Source: a virus (taxonomy: Duplodnaviria > Heunggongvirae > Uroviricota > Caudoviricetes). From it: a DNA stretch of 29,442 nt. This document shows positions 18,260-25,443 of this stretch, piece after piece (position 1 is the first letter of the stretch; each line of letters opens with the position of its first letter). The stretch spans positions 1 through 29,442 of the IMG/VR virus record IMGVR_UViG_2529292882_000006. One strand, 5' to 3'. The notes below the pieces were generated by a model, which was not told the DNA's origin, ran no database searches, and saw only the letters and a list, made by a program, of their open reading frames with translations. Both the position numbers and the translations under genes were made by a program.

Positions 18260-18829
18260 ATGGCTGAACCCTTATGCATGGCATCCTGGCACACTGCTGT
18301 GCTGGATGCCCTGAAAAAACTTAAATGGATCAATGATGCGGACACCTATCCGGAACGGGTCACGCAGCTGGTCACTCCGGCGGTGTTTCTGGCGGTCGAT
18401 GGCTGGGATGCGAAAAGCAATGCAGACGGGCAGATGACGGTGGTGTTGTCTGCTGCGCTGTGGGTACTGGTTGACCGTGCCGGTGAGCCGGATAAAGAAA
18501 AAAAAGAAGAACGCAGGGCGATAAAGCCGGATATTTTTATCCGTTCGGCGGCAGCCGCGTTGTCGCACTGGCTCGACGGGCAGACGTTCGGGCTGGCAAA
18601 TGTGGAGCCTGCCATTTTTATATCAGCGGACGCAGATGAAACCGATCCGCGTCTGGATGATTATCTGGTCTGGCAGATTTCATTTAACCAGACGGTGACG
18701 TTTGGTATGGATCTCTTTGCCACGGATAACCTGCCGCTACAGCGGGCCTGGCTGGGTGTTGCACCGGAGATCGGGCGACAGCATGTGGATGATTACCGGC
18801 TGATTTTTGAGGGAAAGCCACGTGAATGA
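18260..18829 (+). CDS. Putative tail completion / neck protein
   Basis: 189 aa, GAGGA upstream. Position between head-completion genes and the spike and sheath genes. Contains an A8 tract encoding EKKEE. Confidence 0.4.
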   Translation: MAEPLCMASWHTAVLDALKKLKWINDADTYPERVTQLVTPAVFLAVDGWDAKSNADGQMTVVLSAALWVLVDRAGEPDKEKKEERRAIKPDIFIRSAAAALSHWLDGQTFGLANVEPAIFISADADETDPRLDDYLVWQISFNQTVTFGMDLFATDNLPLQRAWLGVAPEIGRQHVDDYRLIFEGKPRE

Positions 18830-19442
18830 GGTTCTGGGGGATTTACAGCGCCGCCTGGCAAATATGGTCCGGCGCGGGGTGATCCACTCGGTGCGGCTGG
18901 ACGGTGGTTTTCCGGAATGCCGCGTGGATCTGGGGGATATTGTGACCACCTGGCTGCCATTATGTCAGGGGTTTGCCGGAAAAAACCGGGCAGATTTTGA
19001 GCCATTTGCTGTGGGTGATGCGGTTACGGTGCTGTCAGAGGCCGGGGAGCTGAATAACGGTCGTGTTTTTCCCGGCTGGAATACCGGTGAGGCACCGGCT
19101 CCGCAGGGCAGCGACAGTGAGCACATCACCCGTTACGGAGATGGTACTGAAATTTGCTATAACCGGGAGACGCACTCACTGACCATTATTCTGGCGGAAG
19201 GGGGCACTTATGCCATTACCGGGAATGGTGTACTGGACGGAAACGTCATGATTTCAGAAAACCTGATCGTGAACGGACGCACGATGGTTGAAGGTGAAGT
19301 GGTGGTGAAAAGTGATTTTTATGCAAAAGGAGAGGTGACGGATAAATCCGGCAGTATGAGCCGGATCCGGGAAACGTTTAATGGACACGACCATCCCGGA
19401 GACAGTGGGGGAACCACGAAAGTACCGAATCAGAAAATGTGA
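18822..19442 (+). CDS. Baseplate central spike protein (P2 gpV / Mu gp45 family)
   Basis: N-terminus LQRRLANMVRRGVIHSVRLD...ECRVDLG parallels P2 gpV, and the C-terminus ends with the iron-binding motif HxH...HPGDSGGTT (FNGHDHPGDSGGTT). GTG 18822 is preceded by GAGGG. Confidence 0.75.
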   Translation: MNEVLGDLQRRLANMVRRGVIHSVRLDGGFPECRVDLGDIVTTWLPLCQGFAGKNRADFEPFAVGDAVTVLSEAGELNNGRVFPGWNTGEAPAPQGSDSEHITRYGDGTEICYNRETHSLTIILAEGGTYAITGNGVLDGNVMISENLIVNGRTMVEGEVVVKSDFYAKGEVTDKSGSMSRIRETFNGHDHPGDSGGTTKVPNQKM

Positions 19443-19463
19443 CCTGCTGCGGCAGGTTTTTTT
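19442..19463 (+). terminator. Intrinsic terminator/attenuator after the spike gene
   Basis: Stem ACCTGC / GCAGGT with loop TGCG, followed by T7. Confidence 0.5.
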
Positions 19464-19480
19464 ATGTCCGGAGAATGCAA

Positions 19481-23566: not shown

Positions 23567-24042
23567 GTGTGGGTTCGGTTATTGCTCTCGCTGAAGACAG
23601 CCTTCAGCGTTACAACAGTTATCTCCGTGGTGCTGCAGATGCCAGAGTCATGCTGATGCTGGGGGATTTCGCTTTTTCCGTGGATACCACGGCATATAAC
23701 CAGCTGACCCGTGAGGCCGGGTGGACCTGGAGCGAGCAGTCGCGTATCGGGCAGCAGAGTCTGCTGCAGTACACCGGGAAAAACGGGCGAACCGTCCGCC
23801 TTGAAGGGGAATCGCACGCCTTTTTGGGGAAGTCAGGGACGGAGGCGGTGAACACGCTGTATGACCTGGCAAATAAGGCTGAGCCGCAACTGCTGGTCAG
23901 TGGAGAAGGTGATGTGCTGGGATGGTGGGTGGTGGAGCGTTTTTCTGATTCCACCGACCGCTTTTTACCTGGTGGTGGGCACCGTAACAAAAAGTGGAGT
24001 CTGGAGCTGAAACATTATGCCGACGATCTGGATAACCCGTGA
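23563..24042 (+). CDS. Tail protein, P2 gpU family
   Basis: About 160 aa; GGAGG 9 nt upstream of GTG 23563. Resembles gpU-family proteins and sits at the gpU position after the tape measure. Confidence 0.65.
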   Translation: MSVGSVIALAEDSLQRYNSYLRGAADARVMLMLGDFAFSVDTTAYNQLTREAGWTWSEQSRIGQQSLLQYTGKNGRTVRLEGESHAFLGKSGTEAVNTLYDLANKAEPQLLVSGEGDVLGWWVVERFSDSTDRFLPGGGHRNKKWSLELKHYADDLDNP

Positions 24043-24232
24043 CGGGGATGTGCTTGATGCGATTTGCGCCACGCATTACGGCACGGAAAATCTGTCTGCC
24101 GTGCTCACTCTTGTGCTGGAGGCCAATCAGGGGTTGGCAGAGAAGGGCGCGGTTTATCCGGCGGGGATCCGGATTGTGTTGCCTGAAATCACACAACAGG
24201 TGTCTGAGTCGCCATACAGCCTGTGGGATTAA
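24017..24232 (+). CDS. Tail protein X (gpX family)
   Basis: 71 aa small LysM-like protein between the gpU-like and gpD-like genes. Confidence 0.65.
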   Translation: MPTIWITRDGDVLDAICATHYGTENLSAVLTLVLEANQGLAEKGAVYPAGIRIVLPEITQQVSESPYSLWD

Positions 24233-24240
24233 GGGAGGAG

Positions 24241-25443
24241 ATGATGACGTCATTATCCGAACAGCTGCAGGCAATAAATGCTGCGTATCAGGAGTCCCTG
24301 AACAGTGAGGAAAAACAGGAAACCATTGCCACGACCGTCCGGGAATTCTGCCCGGCGTATCGGGTGACAGCTGAAGGGCGGGATATCACGCGGGTGCTGG
24401 CCCGTTATCTTGTGGATATCACTCTGACGGATTACGGCGGAGCCACCGCCAAATCTGATGAACTGAAAATCACGCTGCTTTCTGAAACACTGCCCCTGCC
24501 GACAAAGGGGGCGCGTCTGCGGGTGGCGATGGGGTTTAACGGTAATCTGGTGGACAAGGGCTGGTTTGTGGTGTGCGGCGTGAGCAGCAGCGGCCCGCCG
24601 CGGCGGATCGAGATTTATGCTACCGCTGCCCCCATGAATGCGGAAAAGCAGTCCGGTGATGTGCTGAATCAGAAAACACGCAGCTGGGATAATCTCACGC
24701 TGGGTGATCTGGTGAAAACTGTTGCCACGGAAAACGGACTGAAGGCCCGGGTGGCGGAGAAGCTGGCGGGGATCCGCATTACCCATGTGGATCAGGTGGC
24801 AGAATCGGATGCCAGCCTGTTGTCCCGCCTTGCCCGGACGTATAACGCCGTCAGTAAACCTGCCGGAGGTTACTGGTTGTTTCTGGAGCAGGGTGCCGGA
24901 ACCACCGTATCGGGCGCGCCCCTGAAGACCGTGACGCTGACACCTTCCGTGGTGTCATCCTGGAATTATCAGGAAGGTGAACGGGGGAGCTCTGGCGGCG
25001 GTGGAGATAAAAAAAAGAAGAAAGAAAAAATCACGGTTCGTTATTTTGACAAGGCTGACGGGCGAACCAAAACGGCAACCGTGGAGCATGACGGCTCGTC
25101 TGTAACCAGTCCGTACACGCAACCGGAAAAGGAAACGGCTGAACAACAGGCAAAATCGAAAAAAACACAGGCGCAACGCAACAGCCGGAAAATGACGCTG
25201 ACAGGGCCGTGCCGTCCTTCATATGTTGCCATGACCGCCGAATCCGGCGTGGTGACATCCGGATTTGGTAAGCGGGAAGATCGCCGCTGGCTCGTGGAAT
25301 CACTGGTTTTTTCCCTCTCATCTTCAGGCTTTACCTTCACGTTTAATCTGGTGGCTGAAATCAAAAACGCCAGTAAATCAGACAAAAAATCCGGTGATAA
25401 AACAGGGCCGGATTATTTTGGTATCGGATCGGGAAAAAAATAA
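24241..25443 (+). CDS. Late control / tail protein D (gpD family)
   Basis: About 400 aa with AGGGAGG upstream. Contains a low-complexity GGGGDKKKKKEK insertion. Confidence 0.75.
   Translation: MMTSLSEQLQAINAAYQESLNSEEKQETIATTVREFCPAYRVTAEGRDITRVLARYLVDITLTDYGGATAKSDELKITLLSETLPLPTKGARLRVAMGFNGNLVDKGWFVVCGVSSSGPPRRIEIYATAAPMNAEKQSGDVLNQKTRSWDNLTLGDLVKTVATENGLKARVAEKLAGIRITHVDQVAESDASLLSRLARTYNAVSKPAGGYWLFLEQGAGTTVSGAPLKTVTLTPSVVSSWNYQEGERGSSGGGGDKKKKKEKITVRYFDKADGRTKTATVEHDGSSVTSPYTQPEKETAEQQAKSKKTQAQRNSRKMTLTGPCRPSYVAMTAESGVVTSGFGKREDRRWLVESLVFSLSSSGFTFTFNLVAEIKNASKSDKKSGDKTGPDYFGIGSGKK

Follow-up and report, generated by a model that had tools for sequence, protein, structure and literature searches.

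The window (the whole stretch of viral DNA analysed here, 29,442 nucleotides) carries two virion genes, each with a run of eight adenines (A8) inside its open reading frame (ORF). These genes, the runs, and the loops and tail that bear on them are as follows.

18260 to 18829, plus strand: predicted tail terminator/collar gene, 189 aa; 'hypothetical protein' in relatives; phrog_1072.
18476 to 18526, plus strand: tract-1 loop of the 189-aa protein, residues 73-89, AGEPDKEKKEERRAIKP, between the strand at 59-72 and the helix at 90-105.
18498 to 18505, plus strand: A8 tract 1, GAA AAA AAA GAA GAA, encoding E80 K81 K82 E83 E84 in the ORF 18260-18829.
24244 to 25443, plus strand: gene for a gpD-type baseplate hub; 399 aa when counted from the PGAP-type start, the ORF itself beginning at GTG 24223.
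24976 to 25023, plus strand: disordered, G/S/K-rich hub loop, residues 245-260, ERGSSGGGGDKKKKK, in which an in-frame indel of 12 nt is polymorphic.
25009 to 25016, plus strand: A8 tract 2, inside the hub ORF 24223/24244-25443.
25159 to 25165, plus strand: A7 run, TCG AAA AAA ACA, in the hub gene.
25367 to 25440, plus strand: C-terminal hub tail, rich in K/S/D, where relatives differ by in-frame indels; an A7 run (25434-25440) immediately precedes the stop codon.

On its predicted fold, its sequence and its gene order, the 189-aa protein is a tail terminator/collar protein with the lambda gpU fold. A phmmer search matched it to the pyocin R2 collar PA0615 (6u5f_A, E=1.5e-3), and its AlphaFold model (pLDDT 86.6) returned the same structure as the top Foldseek match (E=2.4e-8, TM 0.67-0.75), the terminator of phage Mu (9khy) and gpU of lambda also ranking high; the matches included 8iyd and 3fz2. 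The gene lies between a Neck1/tail-completion gene and gpV, and this position, like the fold, is common to the 189-aa protein, PA0615 and the phage Mu and lambda gpU terminators. The best phage protein matches, in Hafnia phage yong2 (54%) and Citrobacter phage Chris1 (50%), are both annotated 'hypothetical'; no closely related isolated phage was found in the phage collection, where DNA matches reached at most 5% coverage.

The product of 24244-25443 is a gpD/gp27-type baseplate hub. It matches PF05954 at 36.0 bits (cutoff 30.1), belongs to phrog_52 and aligns with the pyocin R2 hub 6u5h_C at E=2.3e-24, while its model (pLDDT 80.3) yields Foldseek matches to 6u5h_A, 3cdd, 1wru, 9ki1 and Mu gp44. 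Fold and gene-order position are shared with the pyocin R2, P2 gpD and Mu gp44 hubs, from which the window's hub differs by an extra N-terminal helix and by its K/S/D-rich tails. Lineage-specific loop extensions have also been described for gpD in a cryo-EM preprint on P2 (10.64898/2026.09.14.750843).

Both A8 tracts lie inside these ORFs, as the earlier note had stated; its 'near 25007' for tract 2 falls an immaterial 2 nt short of the true start at 25009. Tract 2 is read as GAT AAA AAA AAG AAG AAA GAA AAA, that is, D255 K256-K260 E261 K262. A third A8, which that note did not list, occupies 10472-10479 in the gene at 10383-10880. These three runs of at least eight A compare with 1.5±1.3 expected in the window under a first-order Markov simulation, and with 2.66±1.13 (P(>=obs)=0.55) when synonymous codons were shuffled within 29 genes, a procedure which preserves both the proteins and their codon usage. 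The number of A8 runs is not above chance and matches the codon-usage expectation. Lysine codons AAA and AAG stand at 283:111 and glutamate codons GAA and GAG at 305:190; because lysine is mostly AAA and glutamate mostly GAA, E-K-K-E is mostly encoded with an A8.

The loops around the two tracts vary among homologues and are modelled with low confidence. Around tract 1, where the model of loop 73-89 has a pLDDT of about 70, alignment revealed an E/K-rich insert confined to close relatives within the Enterobacteriaceae, its length ranging from 4 to 15 residues; tract 1 itself lies in an insert of 8-12 residues. The insert is missing from about 35 more distant homologues. The suggestion that the run marks a low-complexity insertion relative to homologues therefore holds for tract 1, and confinement of the insert to an E. 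coli/Salmonella/Citrobacter prophage lineage sets this terminator apart from PA0615 and the Mu and lambda gpU proteins. For tract 2 the same suggestion applies loosely: the hub loop is variable in length and carries the 12-nt indel, but there is no clean insertion relative to the pyocin R2 hub. Residues 248-256 of the hub are modelled at pLDDT<50, and loop 245-260 is hypervariable in all 34 aligned homologues and G/S/K-rich in each. Among E. coli prophages, a long allele containing the A8 (nine loci) and an allele 12 nt shorter (14 loci) both remain in frame; long alleles with four different flanking haplotypes all carry the A8 unchanged, whereas the short allele is without it. The C-terminal residues 375-399 of the hub likewise have pLDDT<50.

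At the DNA level, in public assemblies, tract 1 was A8 at 19 loci, A6 at eight (L010/L032, L011, L012, L017, L035, L018 and L019), A7 at five (L013, L031, L033, L034 and L037) and an in-frame A11 at two, the sample of loci having been enriched for variants. The out-of-frame alleles fall into about five lineages for A6 and about five for A7. They are scattered over the tree, and their haplotypes differ from their nearest A8 neighbours by only 0-4 nt per 1.24 kb. A single origin of A6 was considered and ruled out by its presence in at least five separate clades. Tract 1 is usually the sole indel across 1-9 kb relative to the A8 neighbour: it is the only one in 9,450 nt between L011 and L006, whose 26 other runs of six or more are identical, and the only one in 4,232 nt between L013 and L020. 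L010-L012 and L037 retain every other phage gene intact. The N-terminal truncation clusters returned for the terminator all break at tract 1. All 15 copies found without selection for truncation (eight RefSeq genomes, five IMG/VR contigs and two metagenome contigs) carry A8; scans of the viral and metagenome collections found only A8 at tract 1, and a scan of the genome-contig collection for the tract gave no matches.

No out-of-frame allele of tract 2 was present among 23 loci, nor was the predicted tract-2 frameshift tail found in the protein collection. Tract 2 being equally long, the contrast between the two tracts is not accounted for by the length of the run on its own. Elsewhere in the hub gene, a frameshifted copy (L016/P0040, 312 aa) was considered as a length change of the A7 run at 25159; this was rejected on the DNA, in which the G preceding the run is lost and the length of the run is unchanged. 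The description of both runs as slippage-prone frameshift hotspots accordingly finds support at tract 1, in recurrent A6 and A7 alleles (L010 being a Nanopore-only assembly), and none at tract 2, with 0 of 23 loci out of frame.

The runs are probably incidental products of codon usage in variable loops, prone to slippage, as is any homopolymer of 8 nt, and without a programmed role in decoding. Both lie in surface loops of contractile-tail proteins that are rich in lysine and glutamate and under no structural constraint. These loops themselves probably change as low-complexity codons are gained or lost in frame, as in the E/K insert of the terminator and the 12-nt indel of the hub. Replication slippage at tract 1 would then be the dominant way in which the terminator gene is broken, A7 and A6 having presumably arisen repeatedly in otherwise intact E. 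coli prophages and split the gene at codon 81. We infer that the A6 and A7 alleles are real slippage mutations which inactivate or cripple virion assembly. Intergenic T-runs also vary in the same prophages, complete RefSeq genomes included (T6-T9 at 21486, T7/T8 at 16800), and homopolymer length drift in these prophages is therefore real. The out-of-frame changes at tract 1 are deletions only, and deletions of two bases are as common as those of one. Replication slippage does not usually leave a spectrum of this kind.

Tract 1 probably belongs among ordinary mutational hotspots. As in the contingency loci of Haemophilus and Neisseria and the homopolymer indel hotspots of E. coli, a run lies inside an ORF and a change in its length would shift the frame; several out-of-frame alleles, apparently independent, are recorded among strains. 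A simple hypermutable repeat, A8, is present in both ORFs. Mononucleotide contingency tracts are typically longer than 8 nt. Tract 1 further departs from contingency loci in that its out-of-frame changes are deletions only, in that its gene encodes a phage tail part and not a host surface or restriction function, and in that part of its variation may be sequencing error. Exact look-up of the predicted proteins on four haplotypes returned no A9 or A10 product of tract 1. The alleles found, deletions with no A9 among them, do not establish low-level phase variation.

A rival explanation is sequencing or assembly error on long-read or other platforms liable to homopolymer mistakes. On this account the out-of-frame alleles of tract 1, A6 especially, would be errors and both tracts would be stable at A8. 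L010 (GCA_051217815.1), the one source traced to its sequencing platform, was assembled from Nanopore R10.4.1 reads only, with Flye and Medaka, so that basecalling error may account for part of the A6/A7 calls. The identical two-base deletion appears on haplotypes unrelated to one another, each time as the only difference, as a systematic, context-specific error would produce, and the Logan contigs with A6 are short (1-4 kb). Stray indels accompany some alleles: L019 and L033 each have one more homopolymer deletion, that in L019 shortening a T6 to T5 in the adjoining gene, and L011 and L012, which sit on long contigs (1.9 Mb and 352 kb), are one further indel apart. The uniform A8 of the 15 copies found without truncation selection points the same way. 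Against this, the other long runs of L010 are intact (the A8 of tract 2, an A8 at 25159, and a hub of 399 aa), as are the 26 other runs of at least six in L011. Two of the A7 alleles, L031 (19-kb contig no. 57, in three samples) and L037 (48.9-kb contig no. 16), look like Illumina isolate assemblies, and intergenic homopolymer lengths differ among complete RefSeq genomes too. On balance, we regard an artefactual origin as a serious but minority possibility.

A more elaborate account treats tract 1 as a leaky switch, or dimmer, in which A7 and A6 are off at the DNA level and ribosomal frameshifting restores a low dose of near-wild-type terminator. Tail terminators form a hexameric ring, so that few copies would be needed per virion. 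By codon arithmetic, the A7 allele (GAA AAA AAG AAG) makes A_AAA_AAG, at which a -1 shift gives exactly the wild-type protein, while the A6 allele (AAA AGA AGA) sets a slippery lysine codon before tandem rare arginine codons, at which a +1 shift gives the wild type minus one lysine. The shiftiness of A_AAA_AAG, frameshifting at AGA_AGA, and the pairing of a 'savior' indel with low-level compensatory frameshifting are all documented (PMC5009743), the last of these for the G7 run of herpes simplex thymidine kinase (Atkins et al. 2016, PMC5009743). At tract 1, too, ribosomes slipping on the run itself could in part bypass an indel in it, a parallel that is purely hypothetical. Out-of-frame alleles occur in about ten backgrounds at tract 1 and in none at tract 2, and every other structural gene of the A6/A7 prophages is intact. 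However, a silent prophage with recent neutral mutations would have intact neighbouring genes as well, A9 would be equally rescuable by frameshifting yet was not found, and some of the alleles may be artefacts. We consider this account improbable. If it were true, A7/A6 prophages would stay weakly infectious and their alleles could persist and spread; were the alleles both real and leaky, they would show, as a minor case from nature, compensatory frameshifting at work on a structural gene of a phage.

That the A8 tracts are programmed -1 frameshift sites producing truncated hub or terminator isoforms is very improbable. Heptamers do stand in the -1 slippage phase, A_AAA_AAA at 18499-18505 in the terminator and A_AAA_AAG at 25011-25017 in the hub, the latter identical in sequence and phase to that of the E. 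coli dnaX site, where an SD-like element precedes the heptamer and a stem-loop follows it; the A7 allele of tract 1 would also create the dnaX heptamer. Working 3' stimulators typically stand 5-9 nt from the heptamer, and the SD-like element of dnaX about 10 nt from it. At tract 2 an upstream GGAG stops 4 nt short of the heptamer. The hairpin predicted at 25032-25083 is more stable than shuffled sequence (z=-2.3) but begins 14 nt past the heptamer, in sequence encoding a conserved strand; the flanks of tract 1 fold no better than shuffles (z=-1.4 to -1.5). Folding of 80-91-nt windows disclosed no stimulator at working distance at either tract, and 18000-25600 gave no Rfam match, to a frameshift element or otherwise. 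The -1 frame of tract 2 reaches a stop after 12 codons, and that of tract 1 gives products of 104 or 125 aa according to haplotype, with no conserved alternative frame; the -1-frame peptide after the tail-chaperone gene had no Pfam match. The tract-2 heptamer is missing from 14 of 23 related loci, because these carry the short allele. In sum, the phase of the heptamers is that of a programmed site, but no stimulator stands at a working distance, and neither a trans-frame ORF nor the site itself is conserved; in these respects tract 2 departs from dnaX. No -1 heptamer in E. coli is more prone to shifting than A_AAA_AAG, but unselected copies in lowly expressed genes are common there and effectively neutral (PMC5009743).

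On the favoured reading of the A8 runs as incidental, slippage-prone products of codon usage, the run at tract 1 is an ordinary mutational hotspot, and nothing suggests a new mechanism. Annotators should read a split gene call at the terminator A8 in one of two ways, as genuine pseudogenisation or as a homopolymer error of long-read sequencing. The terminator gene is most often found broken at this run in public assemblies, and its 'hypothetical' 189-aa product, from a widespread family of E. coli and Salmonella prophages, may now be named as a tail terminator/collar protein.

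The two runs of eight A that the earlier note had placed in virion genes are both present there, and the observation is real and statistically ordinary. Each run puts a -1 slippery heptamer in frame, A_AAA_AAA at 18499-18505 in the first and the dnaX-type A_AAA_AAG at 25011-25017 in the second.

Tract 1, 18498-18505, in the 189-aa gene (ORF 18260-18829): GAA AAA AAA GAA GAA, encoding E80 K81 K82 E83 E84
Tract 2, 25009-25016, in the gpD-type hub gene (ORF 24223/24244-25443): GAT AAA AAA AAG AAG AAA GAA AAA, encoding D255 K256-K260 E261 K262

A third run, at 10472-10479, completes the exactly-eight-A runs of the window (n=3). 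It reads TTA AAA AAA ATT (L-K-K-I) within the DUF1441 small-terminase-like gene at 10383-10880, is likewise in -1 slippage phase, was missing from the earlier list, and lies in a region which diverges in the related prophage L010.

The three runs of at least eight A compare with 1.5±1.3 expected from a first-order Markov simulation and with 2.66±1.13 (P(≥3)=0.55) from a synonymous-codon shuffle of 29 genes; the latter, which keeps each gene's protein and codon usage, is the fairer null. Neither indicates an excess over chance. Across these 29 genes, lysine is encoded by AAA 283 times and AAG 111 times, glutamate by GAA 305 times and GAG 190 times, and 17 of 27 Lys-Lys pairs are written AAAAAA. 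Because AAA and GAA are preferred, A8 is the commonest spelling of E-K-K-E or D-K-K-K.

The span of both tracts is a contractile-tail module, arranged as follows.

17560-18243, Neck1 / tail completion
18260-18829, the 189-aa gene, phrog_1072 (unknown function)
18807-19442, gpV
19439-20950, sheath
20947-21453, tube
21506-21805, tail assembly chaperone
21908-23566, tape measure
23542-24042, gpU
24017-24232, gpX
ending at 25443, gpD
25446-25799, gpW

The 189-aa protein is a tail terminator, or collar: its sequence matches the pyocin R2 collar PA0615 (6u5f_A, E=1.5e-3), and the structures nearest its AlphaFold model (pLDDT 86.6) are PA0615 (E=2.4e-8), the phage Mu terminator and lambda gpU. Similarly, the 399-aa protein is a gpD/gp27-type baseplate hub, given its PF05954 domain, its match to the pyocin R2 hub (E=2.3e-24), and the Foldseek matches of its model (pLDDT 80.3) to 6u5h, 3cdd and Mu gp44. 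A P2 cryo-EM preprint describes gpD as a trimeric hub and compares the P2 terminator with PA0615 (10.64898/2026.09.14.750843).

Among E. coli prophages the same tail module carries two different head modules. The first (DUF1441 / GpA-705 / portal-503 / ClpP-capsid fusion) is found in the window and in the related loci L010, L014 and L037, the second (lambda-type Nu1 / A / W / B / S49 / D / E / FI) in L004-L008, L011 and L012; the mosaic junction falls near the head-tail joining gene (window ~10380-17540 vs L011/L012 1-9300 and L004-L008). An IS3-family transposase lies directly upstream of that gene in L001 (NZ_LR882057.1, 1-150), which suggests that this prophage copy is decaying.

The earlier note also regarded the tracts as low-complexity insertions. 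This holds for tract 1, which in the model occupies a loop (residues 73-89, pLDDT about 70) between a strand (59-72) and a helix (90-105). In a 45-sequence alignment the loop carries an E/K-rich insert of 8-12 residues, confined to the E. coli/Salmonella/Citrobacter lineage, with variants including PDKEKKEERRAI, PENEKTEMTA and PEEEKMAEEKKRAAA; the insert is 4-5 residues long in somewhat remoter relatives and absent from about 35 distant homologues. The description fits tract 2 only loosely. Here the run ends a disordered hub loop (residues 245-260; pLDDT<50 for 248-256) which is G/S/K-rich, varies in length in all 34 homologues aligned, and shows no gap when aligned with the pyocin hub; the loop is variable in general and holds no discrete insert. 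Two in-frame alleles of this loop occur in E. coli prophages that share about 96-97% identity with the window: a long one with A8 (...GSSGGGGDKKKKKEK; 9 of 23 loci) and one 12 nt shorter (...GSSTGEKKKEK; 14 of 23). Elsewhere in the hub, the K/S/D-rich C-terminal tail (window 25367-25390) has in-frame indels in relatives (KNASKSDKKSGDKT, KSKKSGDKT or KNASKSDKT), and the N-terminal helix (residues 4-27, window 24244-24350) is found in the closest relatives only.

Searching for homologues of the terminator brought up E. coli proteins (P0016-P0019) broken precisely at tract 1 (...EK|RRTQGDK...), as well as an 87-aa form (...EKKKNARR*). The underlying loci carry the following alleles.

Length alleles of tract 1, named by the number of A's
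A6, out of frame: L010/L032, L011, L012, L017, L035, L018, L019
A7, out of frame: L013, L031, L033, L034, L037
A11, in frame: L014/L015; G->A joins A8 to the following AA, giving EKKKE

A neighbour-joining tree built on the 1.24 kb surrounding tract 1 scatters the out-of-frame alleles, the nearest A8 neighbour lying 0-4 differences away in every case: L018 equals L001, L011/L012 equal L006/L008/L021/L024, and a single base separates L013 from L020. Tract 1 is the sole indel between L011 and L006 over 9,450 nt (3 mismatches, 26 other runs of at least six identical) and between L013 and L020 over 4,232 nt, and every other structural gene is intact in prophages with an out-of-frame tract 1. Other defects of the terminator gene are single cases: L036 has lost a G in TTCGGCGG (window ~18546), and P0020 is a 194-aa fusion protein in which the terminase small subunit runs into the C-terminus of the terminator, implying a large deletion. 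Outside coding sequence, the intergenic T8 just upstream of the tail-chaperone gene (21486-21493) is T6, T7, T8 or T9 among close relatives, and that upstream of the gene at 16808 (16800-16807) is T7 or T8, which is natural homopolymer drift.

The sample is enriched for variants, loci having been fetched via their truncated products. Copies gathered without this bias (8 RefSeq complete genomes, 5 IMG/VR contigs, 2 metagenome contigs) are all A8, and the in-frame terminator cluster holds 136 distinct sequences, the 15 members listed representing 122 contigs.

Part of the length variation at tract 1 may be sequencing artefact. Out-of-frame changes are deletions only, exact look-ups on four haplotypes returning no A9 or A10 products, and deletions of two bases occur as often as deletions of one, which is unusual for replication slippage and plausibly fits context-specific basecalling error. 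The assembly behind L010 used Nanopore R10.4.1 reads alone (Flye and Medaka; PMC12655363), one additional homopolymer deletion is present in L019 and another in L033, and one stray indel separates L011 from L012, both on long contigs (1.9 Mb, 352 kb). Against the view that all of it is artefact, L010 retains A8 at tract 2 and at 25159 with its 399-aa hub intact, and L031 (19-kb contig no. 57, in 3 samples) and L037 (48.9-kb contig no. 16) have the look of Illumina isolate assemblies. The A7 alleles are probably real, and a good part of the A6 calls may be spurious.

At tract 2 none of 23 loci is out of frame, and A8 is constant on four flanking haplotypes of the long allele. Truncated hubs of the predicted 267, 268, 286 or 287 aa were absent from the homologue-search matches, as was the unique 29-residue tail of a -1-nt allele from a 5.8-billion-sequence collection. 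The only hub frameshift found (P0040/L016) was rejected as a run-length change, G25158 being lost beside an A7 run (L016 ~8903). The suspected slippage hotspot is borne out at the terminator, with the reservation about sequencing platforms given above; at the hub it is not. The phase variation that the earlier note raised is a conjecture.

Programmed frameshifting at either tract is unlikely. Working 3' stimulators typically lie 5-9 nt past the heptamer; the hairpin downstream of tract 2 (z=-2.3) starts at a greater spacing, 14 nt, in sequence for a conserved strand. Around tract 1 the predicted folding is no stronger than in shuffled sequence (z about -1.4), and 18000-25600 has no Rfam matches. 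The -1 frame runs 12 codons to a stop at tract 2 and gives a 104- or 125-aa product, by haplotype, at tract 1; the tract-2 heptamer is missing in most relatives. No -1 heptamer in E. coli shifts more readily than A_AAA_AAG, yet it is only moderately counter-selected, and in genes with low expression it is often neutral (Atkins et al., PMC5009743). Efficient transcriptional slippage requires ~9 A or T (PMC5009743), one base more than either tract offers. The A11 allele is long enough; its GAA AAA AAA AAA GAA (L014 8001-8570, L015 8001-8570; = window 18498-18508) contains AAA_AAA_AAA, which has a single occurrence in E. coli coding sequence (PMC5009743). Separately, a -1-frame ORF (21751-21933), left unannotated in relatives, covers the last part of the tail assembly chaperone gene and reaches nearly to the tape-measure gene, the position where a P2 E+E'-type frameshift product would be expected. 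It encodes ...FLGRRLHFPLSDYLSMPFSVFTAFLLDEVEAVKRGKRKSES*, a peptide with no Pfam match, and has no canonical heptamer, just GTTTTTA at 21752-21758.

It is very improbable that A7 and A6 create their own ribosomal bypass sites and so keep phages viable on a low-level terminator supply, though the arithmetic was checked on the alleles: a -1 shift on A_AAA_AAG in A7 (GAA AAA AAG AAG) restores the exact wild-type sequence, +1 re-pairing of Lys-tRNA on AAA before the tandem rare Arg codons of A6 (AAA AGA AGA) restores it minus one Lys, and both AGA_AGA frameshifting and the idea of a 'savior indel plus compensatory frameshifting' are documented (PMC5009743). Against it, A9, rescuable to the same degree, was not found. 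Tail terminators form a hexameric ring, so few copies per virion would be needed, in which case bypass at a few percent might suffice for viability.

The tracts are probably a side effect of the preference for AAA and GAA codons in two disordered, Lys/Glu-rich loops, one in the terminator and one in the hub, and represent a further case of a familiar phenomenon. Indel rates in E. coli climb steeply as a homopolymer run lengthens, and one A8 would then outweigh all nonsense targets in the 570-nt terminator gene.
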